Assembly: GCA_951406725.2 (NCBI GenBank)
Contig: OX597814.1
Span: forward strand, 40,238,001-40,302,000
DNA length: 64,000 nt
Source: Octopus vulgaris
Taxonomy: Eukaryota
Reading direction: 5' to 3'
In this document: in pieces, positions 10,901-59,596 of the stretch
How the letters are laid out: each line of letters opens with the position of its first letter
Position numbering within the stretch: the stretch's first letter is position 1
The notes under the pieces: model-generated
What the model was told of the DNA's origin: nothing
Databases searched by the model: none
Seen by the model: the letters and a program-made list of their open reading frames with translations, nothing else
Translations under genes and position numbers: made by a program

Positions 10901-10937
<37 letters not shown>

Positions 10938-11003
10938 GGTCCCGGGTTGATTCGGGGTTAACCACAGTAAGTAAGGTACTCAATACATAGCAGAGTAAAA
11001 TTA

Positions 11004-11386
11004 ATTTATTATATAGAAGGAGCTTCTACAGGACTAGTACTGTTTCATTCAAGAGAAATCTTCAGGAAGCTATTTAACAAGAATTGTATTAGCATTTATA
11101 CATTTAGGCAGGTTTAAAGGAGTGGTGGTGGGGGACTTTTTGGGGGTAGGCATAGCGCAAAATATCATACTTGGGGGAGTGGTCAAGGAGTCAGTGGTAA
11201 GTTAGATGAAAGAATAGATAAATAAAAAAATAAAAAAATAAAAAATATATATAAAAAATATATATATATAAAAATATATATATAAAAAAAGGGGGGATAG
11301 AGTTATAGGTAAATAAGGAGATTCTCACTTATACCTATACACACATGTATACGTATCTACACACACATACATACACATATATATAT

Positions 11387-11433
<47 letters not shown>

Positions 11434-11737
11434 CACACATACATACCTATCTACATACACACATACATACACCCGCCCACATATACAAATTTATACACAT
11501 GCACATGCCTATACCTGTCTACACATACACACACGTATATATGCATACACTCACTCCCATGCATGCACGCATACACACATGTATATATATATATATATAC
11601 CCACGACCACACATACATATATACACAGAAAAATATATATTCATACGCACATACACTCATGCACACACAACACACCTAGTTCCCTATATACACATATTTA
11701 CACCTATATATACATACACCCACATACACCTATGTAC

Positions 11738-11768
<31 letters not shown>

Positions 11769-12294
11769 CACGCATACATATATATCCATACATACATACA
11801 CACATATACATACACATACACATACACATGTGTACCTATACATACCTACACATACACACATACATACATACAAATATATATATATATATATATATATACA
11901 GTCCAATACAGGCCCATTCCCTAATTTTAATTTTATTATCTTCATTTATACTTTTGTTATCTTTGATCGCTAGATCTAAGAATCCTGGCTATGGCTGCAT
12001 GTCCATTTGTCTGTCTACTAGAAGGCAAGTACTCATTCCCGCACGCACACTCATTAGCACGTACATTCACCCATTCGTACACTCATACACATACACGTAC
12101 GCACGCGTTATATTCATACATACAAACATCTACATACGTTCACGTATATACACATACGTACTCGTACCTACAGATTCGTGTCTACACTTTAGGAGGCTAG
12201 TCTATACATATACACCAATAAATATACATATATATATATATACACACACATACATACACACACACACATATATACTCCTACATACAGATACATA

Positions 12295-12340
<46 letters not shown>

Positions 12341-12512
12341 CATACACATACACACATACATATACACACACATACATACACATATATATACATACACAAA
12401 CATATATACACACATATATATACATACACACATACACACATACATACGTATACATACATACATACATCCATACATCCATACTTACATGCATTTATACGCA
12501 TACACACACCCA

Positions 12513-12551
<39 letters not shown>

Positions 12552-12828
12552 TCACACATACATATACAAATCTACGCACACACATACATACATACACGTA
12601 TACACATACACGCACATACACATATACATGCGTACCCATACACGTGCACACACGCACGCGCATCCATATATATACACACACACACATATATATACACGTG
12701 TGCAAGCATACATACATACTCATACGCGCACACATACTTACATATACATATATGCACACACTTACACACATATATATACATACACATATACATGCATACA
12801 TACATATATGCATACATACACACACGCA

Positions 12829-12896
<68 letters not shown>

Positions 12897-13039
12897 CATA
12901 CACATACACATACATACACACATATACACATATATATATATATATATACACCCATACACATACATATATACACATATACATACATATACATACACACACA
13001 CATACATATATACATATACACTGATACACATACCCATAC

Positions 13040-13072
<33 letters not shown>

Positions 13073-13186
13073 TATATACACATGCATATACTTATATCAC
13101 TACATACTCACATATATAAACATATATACATATACACACATACATATATACATGTACATACATATACGTATGTGTATATATATACA

Positions 13187-13236
<50 letters not shown>

Positions 13237-13885
13237 TACATATACACATATACATGTATACATACGCAATAATGATACACATATATACACATACACACAC
13301 ACAGACAGATGCATTTACATACATATATATATATAAATTACATATCTATATAAATACATACATAATACACATATACACACACATATATATACATTCATGC
13401 ATATACATATACAATACAAGTATACATACACATACATACACACACACGCGCACACATACATATACACACACACATATACAAATACATACATACACACATA
13501 CACACACACATATATATACATACATGTACACATATACATATATATATATATATCAACAAGGGAGGGTAAAGTTAATTAGTTATTAATCAATTTCATCAAG
13601 TGTTCAGTATGTAAAGGGACCATTATTATTTTGAGTAAACAATGTTAGAGGGAAAAAATTCTCTAAGTAGTGGAAGAGGCTAAAAACTTTATTGGCTGCT
13701 ATTTCTAGAAAGTTTAGTATGTGGCAAAGTAATTTATTTTATTTTACTAAGCCCTAATTATATAATATTTTATACATACATACACATACATAAACACATA
13801 CATTTACACATACATATGCATATACATATATACACATATACATACAAACACATGTACACATATACACACACACACACATACAAGC

Positions 13886-13926
<41 letters not shown>

Positions 13927-14099
13927 AATATATATACATATATATTTTTACATGCATACATACACACACACACACATAATACATGCGTATATTCCTACTG
14001 TACCCATGCATTTCTATACATATATACATACATACGATACACATATACAAGCGTGCACATATAATATGTGAAAGGTCTTAGGAGAAAAGGTAATCGGGG
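11004..14099 (-). repeat. Left inverted arm (~3.1 kb) of the PLE
   Basis: Reverse complement of 14976-17371. The non-microsatellite islands (e.g. 11900-12220 vs 16160-16483, 13553-13770 vs 15305-15522) read as identical, and the mirrored ORF translations in the ORF track are the same. Confidence 0.95.
11021..11071 (-). ncRNA. Minimal type I hammerhead ribozyme (mirror copy)
   Basis: Exact reverse complement of 17304-17354. Confidence 0.85.
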
Positions 14100-14109
14100 G
14101 TATCTTTAA

Positions 14110-14912
14110 GATATCTTTAAGGCCGCAGCCCCCTATTACAACGAGGCCCTGGCCCGCAGTGGTTTTAAAGATAAGATTACCTACACTAGTATAGCCCCAC
14201 GCCAACCCAGGAAAAATAGACGAAGACACATTAGCTGGTACAACCCCCCTTCAACCGTGAGGTCGCTACACCTGTAGCTAAGATCTTTTTCACTCTCCTA
14301 CAGAAACACTTCCCCACCCAACATAAGTACTACACTATCCTAAATAAGAACACTATTAGACTCTCCTACTCTACCACGCCCAACCTAGCCAGGAACCTAG
14401 CCAACAACAATGTGAAAAAACTTAACATATCTACTTTCTCCGGGGCCCATCCAACGTCCGATAGCAATTGCAACTGCCATGATAAAACCACCTGCCCCCT
14501 CAACAACAACTGCCTACAGAGGGACCTAGTATATAAATGCGAGGTAAGATCAGGCCTTGACGATAAAAGTAAATCCTACATTGGAATGACGTCAAACAGC
14601 TTTAAGACCCGCTGGTACGCACATACACACTCGTTCCGGCGACAGGATAAATCCAACCAAACTACCCTCGCCGCCCACATCTGGTACCTTAAAAGGAACT
14701 CAATCCCCTTCAAGACCAAGTGGAAACTACTACAGAAGGCGCGCTCGTACACAGGAGGACATACCTGCTGTGACCTATGCATATCAGAGAGCCTAGAGAT
14801 CTTGTTCGCCAAAGGCCCTCTCCTTAACAAATTTTCAGAACACTCCCCAAATTGCATGCATAAGAAGTATGCGAACTACAAGAACTATAGACCTACCCGG
14901 CAACCTGATTGA
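14110..14912 (+). CDS. PLE polyprotein C-terminus: RT thumb/linker plus GIY-YIG endonuclease (5'-truncated, one frameshift in the C-run at 14244-14249)
   Basis: DIFKAAAPYYNEALARSGF...RRRHISWYNPP/FNREVATPVAKIFFTLLQKHFP...LSYSTTPN...CNC....CPL...CL..LVY...YIGMT..FKTRW.AH...CDLCISE...LLNK. The GIY-YIG Y/G/R/H/E/N residues are present. Confidence 0.9.
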
Positions 14913-14975
14913 TGACAACCCCCACCCCTACAACCCCCCCCTACAACCCCCCCAACCCCACTGTTCCCCTAGCAA

Positions 14976-15148
14976 CCCCGATTACCTTTTCTCCTAAGAC
15001 CTTTCACATATTATATGTGCACGCTTGTATATGTGTATCGTATGTATGTATATATGTATAGAAATGCATGGGTACAGTAGGAATATACGCATGTATTATG
15101 TGTGTGTGTGTGTATGTATGCATGTAAAAATATATATGTATATATATT

Positions 15149-15189
<41 letters not shown>

Positions 15190-15826
15190 GCTTGTATGTG
15201 TGTGTGTGTGTATATGTGTACATGTGTTTGTATGTATATGTGTATATATGTATATGCATATGTATGTGTAAATGTATGTGTTTATGTATGTGTATGTATG
15301 TATAAAATATTATATAATTAGGGCTTAGTAAAATAAAATAAATTACTTTGCCACATACTAAACTTTCTAGAAATAGCAGCCAATAAAGTTTTTAGCCTCT
15401 TCCACTACTTAGAGAATTTTTTCCCTCTAACATTGTTTACTCAAAATAATAATGGTCCCTTTACATACTGAACACTTGATGAAATTGATTAATAACTAAT
15501 TAACTTTACCCTCCCTTGTTGATATATATATATATATGTATATGTGTACATGTATGTATATATATGTGTGTGTGTATGTGTGTATGTATGTATTTGTATA
15601 TGTGTGTGTGTATATGTATGTGTGCGCGTGTGTGTGTATGTATGTGTATGTATACTTGTATTGTATATGTATATGCATGAATGTATATATATGTGTGTGT
15701 GTGTATATATATGGATGCGCGTGCGTGTGTGCACGTGTATGGGTACGCATGTATATGTGTATGTGCGTGTATGTGTATACGTGTATGTATGTATGTGTGT
15801 GCGTAGATTTGTATATGTATGTGTGA

Positions 15827-15863
<37 letters not shown>

Positions 15864-16037
15864 TGGGTGTGTGTATGCGTATAAATGCATGTAAGTATGG
15901 ATGTATGGATGTATGTATGTATGTATACGTATGTATGTGTGTATGTGTGTATGTATATATATGTGTGTATATATGTTTGTGTATGTATATATATATGTGT
16001 ATGTATGTGTGTGTATATGTATGTGTGTATGTGTATG

Positions 16038-16087
<50 letters not shown>

Positions 16088-16942
16088 TATGTATCTGTAT
16101 GTAGGAGTATATATGTGTGTGTGTGTATGTATGTGTGTGTATATATATATATATGTATATTTATTGGTGTATATGTATAGACTAGCCTCCTAAAGTGTAG
16201 ACACGAATCTGTAGGTACGAGTACGTATGTGTATATACGTGAACGTATGTAGATGTTTGTATGTATGAATATAACGCGTGCGTACGTGTATGTGTATGAG
16301 TGTACGAATGGGTGAATGTACGTGCTAATGAGTGTGCGTGCGGGAATGAGTACTTGCCTTCTAGTAGACAGACAAATGGACATGCAGCCATAGCCAGGAT
16401 TCTTAGATCTAGCGATCAAAGATAACAAAAGTATAAATGAAGATAATAAAATTAAAATTAGGGAATGGGCCTGTATTGGACTGTATATATATATATATAT
16501 ATATATATTTGTATGTATGTATGTGTGTATGTGTAGGTATGTATAGGTACACATGTGTATGTGTATGTGTATGTATATGTGTGTATGTATGTATGGATAT
16601 ATATGTATGCGTGTATATGTATATATATATATATATATATGTACATAGGTGTATGTGGGTGTATGTATATATAGGTGTAAATATGTGTATATAGGGAACT
16701 AGGTGTGTTGTGTGTGCATGAGTGTATGTGCGTATGAATATATATTTTTCTGTGTATATATGTATGTGTGGTCGTGGGTATATATATATATATACATGTG
16801 TGTATGCGTGCATGCATGGGAGTGAGTGTATGCATATATACGTGTGTGTATGTGTAGACAGGTATAGGCATGTGCATGTGTATAAATTTGTATATGTGGG
16901 CGGGTGTATGTATGTGTGTATGTAGATAGGTATGTATGTGTG

Positions 16943-16989
<47 letters not shown>

Positions 16990-17365
16990 ATATATATATG
17001 TGTATGTATGTGTGTGTAGATACGTATACATGTGTGTATAGGTATAAGTGAGAATCTCCTTATTTACCTATAACTCTATCCCCCCTTTTTTTATATATAT
17101 ATTTTTATATATATATTTTTTATATATATTTTTTTTTTTTTTTATTTTTTTATTTATCTATTCTTTCATCTAACTTACCACTGACTCCTTGACCACTCCC
17201 CCAAGTATGATATTTTGCGCTATGCCTACCCCCAAAAAGTCCCCCACCACCACTCCTTTAAACCTGCCTAAATGTATAAATGCTAATACAATTCTTGTTA
17301 AATAGCTTCCTGAAGATTTCTCTTGAATGAAACAGTACTAGTCCTGTAGAAGCTCCTTCTATATA

Positions 17366-17371
<6 letters not shown>
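14976..17371 (+). repeat. Right arm / 3' pseudo-LTR (~2.4 kb) of the PLE
   Basis: Inverted copy of the left arm lacking about 0.7 kb (left-arm ~12695-13390). Confidence 0.95.
17304..17354 (+). ncRNA. Minimal type I hammerhead ribozyme
   Basis: agcttc-CUGAAGA-u/uuc-ucuu-gaa/u-GAAA-cag-uACUAGUc-cug-UA-gaagcu. Stem I is 6 bp, the core is canonical, loop III is palindromic, and the GUA triplet predicts a cut after 17348. The first stem II pair is U-U. Confidence 0.85.
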
Positions 17372-18832: not shown

Positions 18833-18900
<68 letters not shown>

Positions 18901-18924
18901 ATATCTATATATCTATATATATAC

Positions 18925-18980
<56 letters not shown>

Positions 18981-19014
18981 GAAGGTTTGAAAATGCAATT
19001 TAAAAGATGTTTAT

Positions 19015-19059
19015 TTACTTAACCGGTTTCACTCTTTGGTAAAAGATTGTCAAAAGTAA
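19015..19059 (-). ncRNA. Type I hammerhead, U3-A8 core variant (mirror copy)
   Basis: Exact reverse complement of 19688-19732. Confidence 0.65.
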
Positions 19060-19687
19060 CATTGAATATTATGGACTCAAAAAAGTTTTTTACATAATTG
19101 CCACATTGAATATTATGAATTCAAAAAGTTTTTTACATAATTGTCACATTACATGTATAAATATAGTGTTTCGTAACAGAGATATGTTAAGGGCGAGCCA
19201 TAAACAGAACAAAACTGGGTACACATTTTTTTCTCTCAATTCAACATTTCTGCTGAAGCGAACAGGTCAGTAAAAACAAACTCTCGCCTTCAATTCAAAA
19301 TATTCTGAGATGTATAAAATACTCATTTTAATTTTTTCTGTCAATATTACAAATTTTCTCACCATACTATTGCACTTCCTTATGTCTTTAACATGTCCTT
19401 TCTACCAAAGACTGTATATATATACATGTAATGTGACAATTTGCGACAACCGATAATTAACGCAACCAAATTTCCAATAATATATTTGTTTTATTCTTTT
19501 CTGCCAATTTTTTCCAAATATTCTCATCACACTATCGAACTTCTTTATGCCCTTAACATATTTCTGTTACCAAACACTATATTTATACATGTAATGTGAC
19601 AATTATGTAAAAAAAACTTTTTTGAATTCATAATATTCAATGCGGCAATTATGTAAAAAAACTTTTTGGAATCCATAATATTCAATG

Positions 19688-19732
19688 TTACTTTTGACAA
19701 TCTTTTACCAAAGAGTGAAACCGGTTAAGTAA
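19688..19732 (+). ncRNA. Type I hammerhead, U3-A8 core variant
   Basis: uuacuu-UUGACAA-ucuuu.uacc.aaaga.gu-GAAA-ccgg-UU-aaguaa. Stem I is 6 bp, stem/loop III is the palindrome CCGG, and the triplet is GUU. Confidence 0.65.
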
Positions 19733-19808
19733 ATAAACATCTTTTAAATTGCATTTTCAAACCTTCTTTCGTATATAATTCCACTCGTGCGATACCCCAC
19801 AACTCAAC

Positions 19809-19892
<84 letters not shown>

Positions 19893-44229: not shown

Positions 44230-46168
44230 CTTCACCAGGCTCTAATATGCCGGAGGCTGAGTGAAAATATTATTCACTTAATTGTGAAAATTATTGGTTT
44301 GGTAGGCGTATTCTGCCAAACTTTTGTTTGAAAATAGGGTTTTTCCTGTTAAGGAGTACCTAGAAGAAATTTGGAATGATTTTTTAACTGTTTTACAGTT
44401 GTGTTAAATTTTGGCCGTAACGATGAATTGAGAATTTTCGTTTGAGAATTCTTCTTGTGAATTCTAGTGGGCGTATCTCGCCAGAAAAATATAAGAATAA
44501 GCCAGTTCGATTACCCTTTTGGATTACATTTTGGATTGCCTTTTTGGAGTATTATACAAAGGATTCCCTGTCTGTGCTATTTTTCCCTTCTTCTATCATT
44601 TCTTTCTTTCTAAATTTTGGTTCATTCTTTTCATTTCAGTTTCCTCCCCTCCCCTTTATTTTGTTTTATTTTTATTCGGTTTAATTTTTGGGGGCAGACT
44701 GTCTTTTGAACTACTTTTGAACTGTTTTTTGACATGACAGAGAAGGAACATAAAAAGAAAAACTGTGCCTTAGAGTGGGAAATTAACCCGCATAAGCAAT
44801 GTTTAAAAGATATGGAGGAGAAGACGATCGTACTTAGAACGTATTCTAAAGTTCTTAATTCCATCACCGTCTTCCCAAAACAAGTCATAAAAATGAACTT
44901 AAAGAACATTTGTCCTCTGTAAAATATATCCCCCGTGGTGTCAAACATGCAACCGTATGGTTGCTGCTTGACAACGGGGAAAATGCTCGCCAGTTTGTGA
45001 GTCAGCCTTTAGAAGGCAAGGAAATCCTGTTTCTCCCGTCATATTGTGGAAGGAAATTAATACGAGCCTGGGTATGTGGGCTCCCCCAGGGCACAGAAGC
45101 GGATTGGATTGAAGATACCATCCGACGGGGACAGGGGGATTGCGGGCCCAGGCTCTTAAATGTAAAGGTATTGCCGGCGGTCGATTGGGAAGGGTCAAAA
45201 GCGATTTTGATTCTGTGGAAACCATCGGCCGCAACAGAACTGGTTTTTCAAGATTTCTGGCTGCAGATATCCGGTGATGCTTGAGGGACGTCCCCCAAAG
45301 TGTCACTCGTGCCTGCAGCCAGGCCACATTAAAAGGAACTACCCCAAGGACCATGGTAAGGTCCTGGAACAGTCACCAGATGCCACCTCCCCTACCCGGT
45401 CAAAGGGAGAGGTGGATGTGGTCGAGGAGGCTTCAGCCTCCTCTACTCTAAAAGGATTAAAAAGGAAGAAGGTGAGCAACAATAGTTGCCCGCCGAAGGA
45501 ACCTAAGGCTTCGCGAGGTGGGGAAGAGTCTCCGGACAAAGCGGAAGAGCTCTACTCTCCCGAAGCCAGGAAGAAAGAAAAAAGAAAAAAGAATGGCTCA
45601 TCTCAGCAGGGAGATGATGTGCCGACTGCATGCCCCGAAGTTGTGCCACCCACGGTGGAAGAAACCACCCCCACCCTTAAAGATGATCAATTGATTATCT
45701 TTTTCTACAAGGGCGGGGATGTGCAAAAAATAGTAGAAGAACATAAAGAAACAGTCGATATTCCCTTCACACGGGATCCCGAATGGCCTCCGCAGATAGC
45801 TGTGGGGGTCATAAGGTTTCACTTGTGGGAAAGGCTTAAAGGATTTGGGGAGGCGAGTCGCATATGGCTGGGTGGCCCTTACACGACTTACATGTCCTAC
45901 ATGAGTGAGGGATGGGAAATGGCGGGATACAGGAACTCAAGTGGCACTGAAGATAATGATCAATATATCGATGGATATATCGAAGAGTAGGAGGTGAAAG
46001 ACCCTCGTTACAGCGTTTGAAACCTCACCTTATTGGACTATTTTGTAGTTCTTTATAACCTCAATTTTGTGTTTTAAGAAAGAAAAAAGAAAATATGTTA
46101 AGTAAGAGGTTTTAGTGCCTCCTTGTAAAATGTTTGAAACCTTATATTGATTAAAAAAAAAAAAGAAA
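44230..46168 (+). mobile_element. ORF1-only Tx1/L1-type retroposon (HAL1-like); 5' boundary approximate
   Basis: ORF1 at 44734-45990 in three frameshifted pieces, with zinc knuckle EGRPPKCHSCLQPGHIKRN(Y)P. A ~160-nt 3'UTR and ATTAAA/poly(A) follow at 46150-46168. No ORF2. Confidence 0.65.
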
Positions 46169-48616: not shown

Positions 48617-51600
48617 TAGTTTTAATTTTATAGCGTGCTTTCACTTCACTACCGAGCGCAGCACTGTGTGCCTTGGGTATGTGCTGTGATTTGTTGTGAT
48701 GCTCTGATGGTTATTGTATGGAAAGTGTTCTGCGTAGGATGTGTGCAGTGCCTAGTAGTGCAATTTTCTGTATGTTATATATGTTTGTAAGTCCTGGTGT
48801 TTTTGTTATGTATTTGTCTGAATATTTTTTATCATGCCTAATGTACCTACTATGATAGGAATTGTTTCTGTTTTCAGATTCCACATTCTAGTTACCTCTA
48901 TTTCCAGGTCTTTGTATTTTGAAAGTTTCTCCTTTTCTTTTAGAGAAACGTTGTCATCTGCCGGTATTGATACATCAATTAGAAAGCATTTTTTTCTTCA
49001 TAGTATCTGACAACTATATCTGGTCTGTTGGCCTTAATTTCTCTATCTGTGTGCATCGGCATATCCCAGTGTATGGTTGCTTTCTCATTTTCTGTGACCT
49101 TTTCTGGTGTGTGCCTATACCATCTATTTCTGTTGTTATTCCATAATTTTGGCATAGCTTCCAGTGTATGTAGGTTCCAACTCTCTCGTGTCTGTGTATA
49201 TATTTCGTCTTAGCCAGGACTGGGCAGCCAGAGATAATATGATTTATTTTTTCTTGTCCATCTCCACATATTCTGCAGTTACTTGTTATATTTCTTTTCA
49301 TTACATGTTTTTGGTAATTTTTGGTGGAGAGGCTTTAGTCTTTTGCTTCAAATAATAATCCCTCTGTCTCTGCTTTGAGTCCTGAGCTTCTCAACCATTG
49401 CTGGGATTTTCCTTTGTCTATTTCTTTTTCGTTTAGTTAATCCAGTATTTACCATGAAGGGGCTTTTCTTGCCATCGTTTTATCATGGTTCGTTGCCGTT
49501 CAATTTTTAGTGTGGATTTCATTAGTTTTATAGCTTTTGTTGTTTCTTTATCTTTTCGTATTTATTAGGTGGTATGATTTTTTGTTTGTATTTGTCAGCT
49601 TCCTAAATACTGAGAACAGTTTTTTGTTTTGCTCGTGTTTTGCCGATATTTGTATCAGTTTTCCTTCGTTCTGAAGTAGATAATTTTGCAGTCCTATGGT
49701 GGTTATTTTATAGTAGTTTTCCAGCTGTATAAGGCCTCTACCACCTTCTATACGTTGTATATATAATCTTTCTCTGTCAGATTTTGGGTGACGCATCCTA
49801 AATCCTGTCATTATTTTTCATGTTTTCCTATCTATTTTGGTCAGTTCGTTTAGTGTCCAGATAAGGATATTGTAGCTGTAACTTATAACTGGGACAGCTA
49901 AAGTGTTAATACCTATTATCTTGTTTTTAGCATTGAGCTCTGTTTTTAGTATTGATCTAACTCGTCTATAATATTCTTTTTTTATTTTGTCTTTTATTTG
50001 TGTGTGTTGTGTCTTATCTAGTTCATGGATTCCTAAGTATTTGTAAGTTTGGCTTTGGTCTAATTCTTGTATTTCATTGGTTTTATATAGTGTGATGTTG
50101 TTACTCTTAACTAGTTTTCTTTTTTCATGGTTACTTTGGCGCATTTTTCTAATCCAAATTTCATATCTATTTCTTTGGTGAATCCATGAACTGTCTTTAA
50201 TAGTGTTTCTAGCTGTTTGTCATTAACAGCGTATAGTTTTAGGTCATTCATATATAAAAGGTGACTGATCGTTTTGCCGTAACATTTATATCCGCATCCA
50301 GTTCTATTTAGCATATCAGATAGAGGTGACAGTGCCAAGCAGAAAAGGAGTGGAGAGAGCGTGTCTCTCTGGAATATTCCTCTTCTAATGGGGATGTCTT
50401 TGGTTTTCATGAGTCCCTCTTTTGTTTGGAGCTGTAGCACTGTTTGCCATTTATTCATAAAGTGCCCTATGAATTTTATAATTGTTGGTGCTACGTTGTT
50501 AATGGCTAGTGTTTCGAGGATCCATGAGTGGGGCATGCTATCAAACGCCTTTTTGTAGTCGATCCTTGCCATACTGATGTCTTTCTTCTTTCTACGGTTG
50601 TCTTCAGTTATGGGTTTATTTATCATTAGTTGAACTTTACAGCCATATGAGCCTTTGCGCCATCCTTTCTACTCTTCTGGAAACAGGTTGTTTTCGTCCA
50701 GGTGCTCGTTCAACCTTTGCGATAGCACTGCAGTAAATGCCTTGTATATTGTAGGGAGTCAAGTCTGTAGGTCTCTGGGTTTGCTGTCTTATTTGGTTTG
50801 GGAATTAAGACAGTTTTCCTCTTCGTGAGCCATTCAGGCATTGTCTCTGGCTCTACTAGTATGTTGTTAAATTTTTCAGCCAGCTTTTTGTGCATTCCTG
50901 TTAGATATTTCAACCAGAATTTGGGGATCTTGTCATGCCCAGGTGCCTTCCAGTTGCTTTGTTTTTTCAGTGCCTGGGTGACCTCTTCAATTGTTATGGG
51001 GGTCCAAAGTTGCTCAGATGCTGAGTTTGTTGTTTTAATACTCCTTTTTTTTGTTGTTTGTTCGCCGACCATATTTCTTTCCAGAATTCTTCCACTTCTT
51101 CTGCCGTTGGTGCTGCACTTATTTCTATTTTATTTTTGCCAAGTTCTTGGTAGAACTTTTGGGGGTTGGAGTTTAACTTTTTGCCTTGTTCAAAGAAGCG
51201 CTGGCGTTTCTCGTGCCGGTGTATCCTTTGTGCTTTGGGAAGGATATCTTACTTCAGCTTTTCTTTTATCTCAGTTAAATCTTTTTCTGTGATGTTATAT
51301 TTGCGGAGTGTTTTTGTTTTCTTTTTGTTGCTCTGTAGCGTTGATTGTCTACTGATTTCATTAAGAATCGACAGATCGTTTCTCATTTTTTGTATTTTGT
51401 TTTGGATGTTATTTATCCACAAGGTTTGTTTTGGTGGTGGTACTCCTGTTTGGATGGGTTTGAGTGAGTATCCAGCTTCTTTTTGGCTGCAGTGGTTGCT
51501 GCGTATACTAAGTCATTTAGCTCAGTGATATCGCTTTTTGTTTCAGTGGCTATTAGTTCCGTGACTGCTAGGTTTATGCTGTTTATAATTGGTGTTGTTG

Positions 51601-52760
51601 TTTCGTCTATTTTAATTTTTGGGAGGTATGGTCGGTGGTCCATTTTGAGCTCTGTGGTTTTCAGTTCTTTGACTATTTTACTTTTTATATTATCATAATC
51701 ATTAGGCTCCCCTTCGTTGCTTCCAGGTTTTAGATTTGTGTCGCTTTCTTTCTTATTTATATGTTTGTTTGCCCTGTTTTTGCTTGCTGTTTGTCGTGTA
51801 TTATTATGCATCGTTACGGTCTGGGTTTGTTGTTTTTTGTTTACATCGTGTTTGTTGGAAATGTTACGTTTGTCTTCGTGTTTTATCGTTTCAGTGTTTA
51901 TATTATTGGGCATTGTTGTGTCGCTTCTATCTACATTTTCTTGGTGTATTTTTTTCTTTTAGATGTTCTATTTCTATTTTTTAGATGTTCTAGTTCTATT
52001 TCTATTTTTTTTGCGTTGAGAATGTATGATCATACCTTAGCTAGTTGATTAGGGTTCATTGCTGTATCCAAGCCTATATTTATATTATTTTCCTTCCAGA
52101 TTTTATATGCATGTGTTGTGTTTTCATTTTTTGTGTAGAGCACTGTTGTGAAGTATGCGTGTAGGATAGAAATGTATTCCTCACGTGTCCATTTATGTCT
52201 TTTGGGTTTTATTTGCGGGACATGAGGAACAGCGTCCGGTCCATTATTTTGACGGTCGTCATTTTCGTAGGGTACCGGTTCGTTCATTTCTGTTGTCACA
52301 TTGTTTTGCACGTGTAGTTTTTCGTACATTTTGTGTTGTAAGTTTCAAGTACGTACCTCCCGATTGTTATTCTTGGGTTGAATAATATCGGTGGTATTTA
52401 ATTTCTTCGTAGTTCCTTTGTACATGATGTTTGGGGTCGGGGATGATCTGGTGTTGATGGATCGTAATGTATCACACATGTTTATATGTGTTGTTTTTGA
52501 GGTGGAGATGATATCGAGTCAAAATACATCATTTCGTTTCGAAAATAGTAATAAATTTCAATGAGTATTACTTACTCCGGTACAGTCCAATCCTTTGTTA
52601 GTAAATCTTTGGCTCCATACGATGTCCTTGTTTTCGATGTTTGTGGATAGATTGCAGAGCTCTCTTTTATCGTTCTTACATCTTAAACGTCCCCCAGTGT
52701 ATCTTCGTCCCCCGGTGTATCTTCCGTCCCCCGGGATTATGGTAGGTGGGCTCCATTTTT
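48614..52760 (-). mobile_element. R4/Dong-clade non-LTR retrotransposon (RT plus restriction-like endonuclease), near full length, frameshifted
   Basis: NWKAPGHDKI, IDYKKAFDSMPH, RGIFQRDTLSPLLFC, HLLYMNDLKLY, YKYLGI, EGGRGL, CRICG...HIISGC...RH and RPDI motifs in order. The 3' end abuts (TAA)n at 48490-48613. Confidence 0.92.
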
Positions 52761-58744: not shown

Positions 58745-59596
58745 AATATAATCCATTGGTAGTAGTTCAGTGGAAGGAGTCGGTGATGAGATAGGGTCGA
58801 AGATGGGTGCCGGTGAGGTGGGTGGTGTTAGAGGGGTAAGGGTATGTCTGGCAGCTAGAGCGGGAGCAGGGGAACGAGCCAGGTTGGAAGGTTGGGTTAG
58901 GGACGAAGCTATGTACCAAGAGGTCTCGTATGTTGTGGGATCGTTTGAAAGAGGTGAGGGGTCCATTAGAGAAGATGTGCGAAGTGGAGGAGTCAGACTG
59001 GAGTCACCAGACCAGAAGGCTCGGAAAATGGTGCGGTGGAGAGGTAGGGTGGTGAGGTGGTAGGTGAGGGGAAACACGAGACGGGACTGGTGCGAGGGGA
59101 GGGAGCAGATGTACAATCCACAGAACGTGCTCTGGCAAGAGCAGAGGGGATATTGTTGAGGGGATATCCACGTAGGATGAAGTGGCGAGCTATGAGTTGA
59201 GGCTGAGTCTCAACGTCATGGTCGTCACTGCAGGTCCGGCGTAAACGAAGGAATTGGGAATAGGGGATGGAGAGCTTGGTTGTTTGAGGGGGAGAAGTTG
59301 AGGTATGAGTGTGAGTCTGTGTGTTGGTAGTGGATGGAGGTGGTGAGAGTGGAGTAATGAATGCTGACCGAAATGTCAAGAAAGGAGACAGAGGTGTCAG
59401 AGGTAGTGCAGTAGAAGTGGAGGGCAGGATGGAAAGATTTGACAAAAGAGAGAAAGAAGTCTAGATGTTCGCGGGCGAGTGAGGTCGCACCGATAGAGTC
59501 GTCAAAGTAAAAGCCGTAGTGTTTGGAGTGGGACCAGTGAAACTTGAGAATATTTGGGCCTCAACGTAGCCAACGAACATATTCGCATAGTTGGGG

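Follow-up and report, generated by a model that had tools for sequence, protein, structure and literature searches.

The window, by which we mean the whole 64,000-nucleotide stretch of Octopus vulgaris DNA that was analysed, carries an insertion of 836 nt (18977-19812) lying within a (TA)n target microsatellite, which flanks it on the left at 18861..18976 and on the right at 19813..19889. The direct part of the insertion (19189..19812, plus strand) is a 5′-truncated copy matching the terminal 624 nt of the 3′ UTR/pLTR in an autonomous PLE of approximately 5.8 kb. To its left is an inverted second copy of the element 3′ end, the left arm (18977..19194, minus strand), which is 218 nt long and has no tail. 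The two meet at an inversion junction (19189..19193), where comparison of the window with a related locus, L094, reveals microhomology, with approximately 5 nt belonging to both the inverted arm and the direct copy. The right arm (19549-19770, plus strand) has approximately 95% identity with the left arm and is followed by a 42-nt PLE tail, found on the right side only (19771..19812, plus strand). An earlier note on this DNA, made from the sequence alone, had reported arms in inverted orientation, a 42-nt tail on one side, flanks of (TA)n and the sequence UUGACAA in both arms; all of this anatomy was confirmed, and its description of the insertion as non-coding also holds for the 836 nt, in which the longest ATG frame is 52 aa.

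Both arms contain the identical 45-nt minimal type I hammerhead motif, located at 19688..19732 (plus strand) in the right arm and at 19015..19059 (minus strand) in the left arm, where U3 is at 19053 and A8 at 19048. A relaxed search of the 64 kb for hammerheads, covering both strands, returned just these two motifs, while an Rfam scan of the window motif gave no hammerhead match at E≤10. The motif consists of stem I, the core U3 U4 G5 A6 C7 A8 A9, a 16-nt stem II region, GAAA, the palindrome ACCGGU and U17. In the right arm stem I pairs 19688-19693 with 19727-19732 over 6 bp, the core positions U3, A8, A9, G12 and U17 are at 19694, 19699, 19700, 19717 and 19726 respectively, and the palindrome occupies 19720-19725, with cleavage predicted after U17 (19726). 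Stem II opens with a U10.1-U11.1 mismatch (19701/19716) and continues as a 5-bp stem. Directly upstream of the hammerhead are two tandem units of approximately 45 nt (19593..19687, plus strand), mirrored at 19059-19150, and the copy number of this unit varies between subfamilies.

The core that marks membership of the PLE U3-A8 subtype (U3 U4 G5 A6 N7 A8 A9, G12 A13 A14 A15.1, U16.1 H17) is present, as are a palindromic helix III and a stem I within the 4-6 bp range, with 6 bp in the window and 4 uninterrupted pairs in one subfamily. Judged by its sequence, the motif is a PLE minimal hammerhead in every respect except the consensus G10.1-C11.1 pair, and the reading of it as a minimal type I motif in a PLE-type insertion was borne out. 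Folding predictions are less clear cut. The lowest-energy fold of the motif monomer is non-catalytic and is not better than those of shuffled sequences (z -0.57). With stem I formed, two registers of stem II differ by just 0.5 kcal/mol, and in isolation a bulged hairpin is 0.6 kcal/mol more stable than the U-U register. The palindrome can also lengthen to 8 bp, capturing A14 and U17 (-12.1 vs -9.7 kcal/mol).

The variant U3-A8 pair would have been discredited by a family consensus with C3-G8 or with random core changes, and neither was found. A pattern with positions 3, 7 and 8 free gave 758 genome matches, and one in which stem II was also free gave 1,001; the reversed control gave 0 in each case, so the matches are not due to chance. 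Position 3 was U in 100 of 100 and position 8 was A in 98 of 100 of the matches listed for the first pattern, while all 100 of the matches listed for the second had both U3 and A8, C3-G8 being absent among them. Exceptions sought genome-wide comprised five motifs lacking U3 (2 C3-A8, 3 A3-A8 and 0 C3-G8) and ten lacking A8, of which six were U3-G8; these patterns were bounded differently from the 1,001-match pattern, so the ratio of exceptions to total is approximate. UUGACAA is the exclusive core in 14 of 16 intact elements with an open RT-EN frame, and contigs of four runs with three organism labels showed no difference of at least 3% at position 3 or 8.

A canonical C3-G8 subfamily was sought using CUGANGA..UGAAACCGGU, which gave 29 matches, none with the flanks of the window family. 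As no C3-G8 subfamily was found, no true 3-8 covariation has been observed in the families examined. Two loci, L065 and L075, were considered as a C3-G8 subfamily of a sister family, a reading dropped because a further locus, L229, has C3-G8 and U3-A8, one per arm. In the sister family C3-G8 occurs in rare and sporadic copies, and L073 and L074 look like decayed U3-A8 copies matching by chance. On the evidence of these sequence comparisons U3-A8 is a fixed family trait, not decay. The presence of the variant in both arms, which had been offered as evidence for this, carries no weight because both arms derive from one template; L014 has a mismatched C3-A8 in both arms.

The extent of the family was examined by searching 2.8 Gb of genome with the 3′ 153 nt, which gave 2,318 first-look candidates, 40 of which were scored. 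Comparison of 30 family loci revealed that both length and inversion point differ from locus to locus; many of these loci extend upstream through a low-complexity stretch, and the larger ones reach the RT frame. The 624-nt direct part in the window is 95.9% identical to L094:8288-8913, which is downstream of a 675-aa open RT-EN frame. The match to the 3′ end of this ORF-bearing locus identifies the window insertion as a 5′-truncated, inverted copy of an autonomous element; the window sequence also continues upstream into the ORF in L092, and L105 likewise argues for autonomy. The insertion had been described as a small non-autonomous mini-PLE, but its direct part is the 3′ UTR end of an ORF-bearing family, and the features that would define a non-autonomous mini-PLE or retrozyme (a short non-coding unit, with fixed ends or same-sense tandems) were not found.

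The full unit of approximately 5.8 kb contains a pLTR with a hammerhead, the tail, an ORF1-like frame, an RT-CxxC-GIY-YIG frame, a 3′ UTR and a further hammerhead in the same sense; the spacing of these same-sense hammerheads is 5,817-5,830 nt in L130, L135 and L136. The ORF1-like frame is 480 codons from stop to stop and overlaps the RT-CxxC-GIY-YIG frame of 776 codons. Its start is within approximately 40 nt after the tail, with the hammerhead approximately 150 nt upstream of it, and the 3′ UTR is microsatellite-rich and approximately 2.2-2.5 kb long. Stem I is interrupted by a mismatch in the commonest full-length subfamily, with 4 contiguous pairs left. The two frames in L136:2911-6623, ORF1-like and RT-EN, share approximately 60 nt, read in different phases, and within the tail are 6 nt whose complement lies immediately ahead of the ORF1-like ATG.

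An open RT-EN frame of 776-847 aa is present in 16 of the 19 family loci that were the best matches to the 5′ region, a set that includes two overlapping pairs and from which a 20th locus, holding the ORF of a sister family, was left out. All 150 scored matches to the EN part have 92-100% identity, so the family is young. The 776-aa frame contains a DKG motif, YLDD and a C-terminal YVIRCEGC..YIG region. Pfam RVT_1 matched the RT frame with E=1.3e-6, just under the cut-off; Pfam GIY-YIG gave no match at 0.01 on the RT-EN frame, and the endonuclease call consequently rests on motifs. RT and EN are joined by the linker CGRPNCKTC, which fits the CX2-5CxxC linker that, in the sections of Craig et al. 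2021 cited here, defines the Neptune/Nematis type (PMC8557442). Inverted truncated arms, a tail and TA targets are described there as the PLE footprint, and the window family has pLTRs from partial tandems, an inverted truncated arm, a one-sided tail and a (TA)n target. From its linker we assign the element to the EN+ PLEs of Neptune/Nematis type, leaving the choice between the two at type level. Its 3′ UTR is long and rich in microsatellites by comparison with those EN+ PLEs as described in the same sections.

A search excluding C at position 7 found 59 relatives, mostly older, and all 59 were analysed: 49 are U3-A8, seven C3-A8, two U3-G8 and one U3-U8. U is present at both 10.1 and 11.1 in 50 of the 59, as it is in the window, in place of the G10.1-C11.1 consensus pair of published PLE hammerheads. 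Of 51 distinct stems, 41 form the 10.3-11.3 pair of the U-U register (25 U-A, 15 A-U, 1 G-U) and 8 form the second pair of the bulged register. Because MAFFT displaced one stem when aligning 7 motifs, the pairs were counted by script with A9 and G12 as fixed points. Clustering of the 59 relatives on flanks alone gave five clusters of at least three members (28, 8, 6, 3 and 3), one pair and nine singletons. U3-A8 and the U-U junction are in the majority in all five clusters, although in one of them 3 of 8 copies are C3-A8. The stems that follow U-U differ, being CG-UA-UA in one cluster, CG-AU-GC-AU in two, CG-UA-UG-UA-UA in the young family and UA-AU-UA in the remaining one. Compensatory changes across these five flank-defined clusters support stem II, a covariation that rests on approximately four lineages and on a search pattern that fixed the rest of the core. 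The conserved structure, as read from the sequences, is U10.1-U11.1 followed by a compensated stem. The 2-nt GU bulge proposed earlier can be drawn as one of two near-equal registers, but it pairs in the young family alone and fails in all older clusters, and family covariation supports the U-U register instead.

The position before the predicted cleavage site also varies. A search for motifs without U17 gave 295 matches, with 99 A and 1 G among the first 100, and by depth in two large runs A accounts for 44-46% of N17, C for 8-15% and G for 0-0.07%. At the sequence level, then, N17 is U, A or C and hardly ever G, which obeys the hammerhead rule, and N7 and loop II are variable, as hammerhead rules predict. 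The A17 (GUA site) subfamily (L231-L260; up to 295 matches) carries deletions inside the 3′ UTR, has ORF sequence within 1.5 kb in just 2 of 30 loci, both belonging to one insertion, and could include true non-autonomous derivatives. 5′ ends near the cleavage site were seen in 1 of 30 loci examined (of 295), 29 of the 30 being A17 copies; a control position gave 4 matches.

Two sister autonomous PLE families (L101:2000-4760, minus strand, L152-L169; L146:417-3360, plus strand), whose RT identity is 57-67%, likewise carry U3-A8 together with U at 11.1, the 10.1-11.1 pair being A-U or G-U. One has a 4-bp stem II, A17 and 1,220 matches, and the other has the palindrome CAUG. Different PLE families are found stacked in each other's terminal (TA)n tracts (L093/L146, L101, L106). 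Broken cores have also been copied, namely the C3-A8 in both arms of L014 and a U3-G8 in the pLTRs of L139 and L142, two C17 loci with an intact 776-aa element. The latter two are 96.5% alike over 7.9 kb, lie 11 Mb apart in opposite orientation and are probably one duplicated insertion.

The U3-A8 variant is not new for PLEs: it was already described in 2014 by Cervera and De la Pena in PLE minimal hammerheads of Schistosoma mansoni, with approximately 1,300 hits (PMC4209133). The window family resembles the Cercyon PLEs of that species in having a type I minimal hammerhead in the pLTR, U3-A8 and a palindromic helix III, and further in its opposite-strand pairs 100-700 bp apart, with most copies in truncated PLEs (PMC4209133). 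In the Cercyon consensus A9 is followed by one additional nucleotide and the G10.1-C11.1 pair is conserved (PMC4209133), whereas the window family has U-U then C-G at the junction, and its common site is GUU or GUA. Natural hammerheads with U3-A8 and with U10.1-U11.1, compatible with cleavage, were reported by Perreault et al. 2011 (PMC3088659); in the parts cited these are separate, rare and not linked to PLEs, while here both are present together in >1,000 copies. The non-LTR retrozymes of metazoans (Li et al. 2026, bioRxiv 10.64898/2026.07.22.740005) likewise have a type I hammerhead related to those of PLE pLTRs, but, in the part of the preprint cited, they are non-coding tandem units, in contrast to the coding window family and to the window copy with no same-sense tandem. 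A literature search on U3-A8 and U10.1-U11.1 gave only PMC4209133 and PMC3088659 as relevant, and on this basis we make no claim that their combination is unpublished. A search combining Penelope, hammerhead and octopus found nothing specific. Lunse et al. is said to be a catalogue of PLE hammerhead variants. U3-A8 PLE hammerheads are thus already in print and the window copy is an ordinary truncated insertion; descriptors that require C3-G8 or a paired 10.1-11.1 would nevertheless miss >2,000 motifs in this genome (1,001 + 295 + 1,220).

The explanation we consider probable is that the 836 nt are a 5′-truncated, inverted 3′-end insertion of a young autonomous PLE, whose U3-A8 hammerhead is a slow ribozyme that depends on dimers or protein and is inert at this locus. 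The endonuclease of the element would nick the (TA)n tract, the RT would start at the two sites delimiting the tail (downstream of the predicted cleavage site by 86 and 44 nt), and the two RT products would be joined head to head at the 5-nt microhomology. Starts 86 and 44 nt past the predicted cleavage site would mean that the template was uncut there, and full 3′ ends derived from RNA uncut at the 3′ hammerhead fit a slow or conditional ribozyme. Where a transcript has the form pLTR-ORF-pLTR, its two same-sense motifs might create helix III by base-pairing at their ACCGGU palindromes, and motifs paired in this way may cleave slowly, probably with the help of the element protein. Dimers of PLE minimal hammerheads cleave weakly in vitro (PMC4209133, in part). 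In PAc, a Poseidon element of Anolis, the sections of Frangieh et al. 2024 cited here report that the tail lies between two RT starts, that uncut RNA is the main template and that the hammerhead cleaves only with protein (PMC11167929). The window family is like PAc in having a tail bounded by two 3′ ends, AT-rich targets and a hammerhead inside the copied region (PMC11167929). The two differ in that the C3-G8 core of PAc overlaps the ORF start, as described in the same sections, while the U3-A8 motif of the window family is well upstream of the ORF1-like start.

At the window locus itself the outlook for cleavage is poor. In read-through RNA, models pair the sense arm with the opposite one (P=1.00), giving a predicted hairpin of approximately 220 bp that buries the motif. 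Because just one arm is sense in either direction, and because of this predicted pairing, the copy is likely to be inert, and a function of its hammerhead appears unlikely on these models. The proposal of a functional variant rather than decay is therefore half right: the variant is fixed, hence not decay, but that this copy functions is unlikely. Contigs of presumed-RNA runs cover the motif. At 19713-19748, A>G is the commonest change in X13 and X19, two small runs of organism B (8 of 16 and 7 of 13 places respectively); it affects core A14 and A15.1 in X13, and is not the commonest change in two large runs of other organisms. If these runs are RNA, as presumed, the pattern in X13 and X19 looks like A-to-I editing of arm-paired RNA.

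The alternative that survives best, though we think it unlikely, is that the motif is a conserved non-cleaving RNA, a hammerhead-derived site for binding or positioning a PLE protein near the RT starts. Every full 3′ end reaches past the cleavage site (44 or 86 nt), templates with U3-G8 and C3-A8 were copied, and U3-A8, U-U at 10.1-11.1, the GUU site and the 8-nt palindrome would each lower activity. In the anole system, moreover, catalytic mutants of the PLE had no effect on insertion in vitro and no RNA-seq reads end at the cleavage site, according to the sections of PMC11167929 cited here. What such a site would leave unaccounted for is that 3-8 stays Watson-Crick in three families, that N17 avoids G and that N7 and loop II vary, at catalysis-relevant positions that were free in the searches; the anole motif also cleaves once protein is added (PMC11167929, in part).

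A non-autonomous 0.84-kb mini-PLE, with a functional variant ribozyme and a GU bulge in both arms, is largely refuted and in our judgement highly improbable. That the 836 nt are non-coding and U3-A8 is fixed would suit it, as would the 0.6 kcal/mol advantage of the bulged hairpin in isolation, and the deletions and scarce ORF (2 of 30 loci) of the A17 subfamily suggest that short derivatives may exist. The copy lengths and inversion points, however, vary by locus, the window sequence runs on upstream into the ORF in L094 and L092, the two arms run in opposite senses and would, by prediction, pair with one another, and the bulged register fails outside the young family. It is equally hard to credit that the motif is a dead relic, in which two drift mutations in one founder were spread by amplification of the young family. 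In its favour, nearly all copies of that family come from a few sources, so that fixation there is identity by descent only, and drift from C to U and from G to A is favoured in host DNA that is very AT-rich. Against it, U3-A8 and U11.1 are retained across subfamilies with flanks differing by 37-74% and across three families with 57-67% RT identity, and stem II changes on both sides in a compensatory manner.

A more speculative suggestion, which we hold to be doubtful, is that a whole PLE clade of this host has kept a purposely attenuated hammerhead, tuned to leave the 3′ copy uncut until the element protein has bound and primed. The attenuating features meant are U3-A8 and, in the window lineage, U10.1-U11.1 with a GUU or GUA site. 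If this were true, the subfamily series (U17/A17, broken 3-8 pair) would make the role of the PLE hammerhead directly testable; good material on that role is in any case offered by a young, intact autonomous family whose natural variants affect N17, loop II, stem I and the 3-8 pair.

Several other elements are present in the window. A second, unrelated PLE-like insertion occupies 10935-17371, with long inverted arms at 11004-12875 and 17371-15522 that are 96% identical, a one-sided extension on the left and a GIY-YIG-like frame of 225 aa at 14235. At the level of the core motif it has a canonical CUGAAGA..GAAA core near 17310, so that C3-G8 and U3-A8 families sit side by side in the window. 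Labels taken from translation identify a decayed gag-like zinc-knuckle ORF region at 44859-45990 (plus strand), a decayed non-LTR RT in pieces at 49800-51960 (minus strand) and a weak, decayed PLE RT fragment at 59291-59542 (minus strand).
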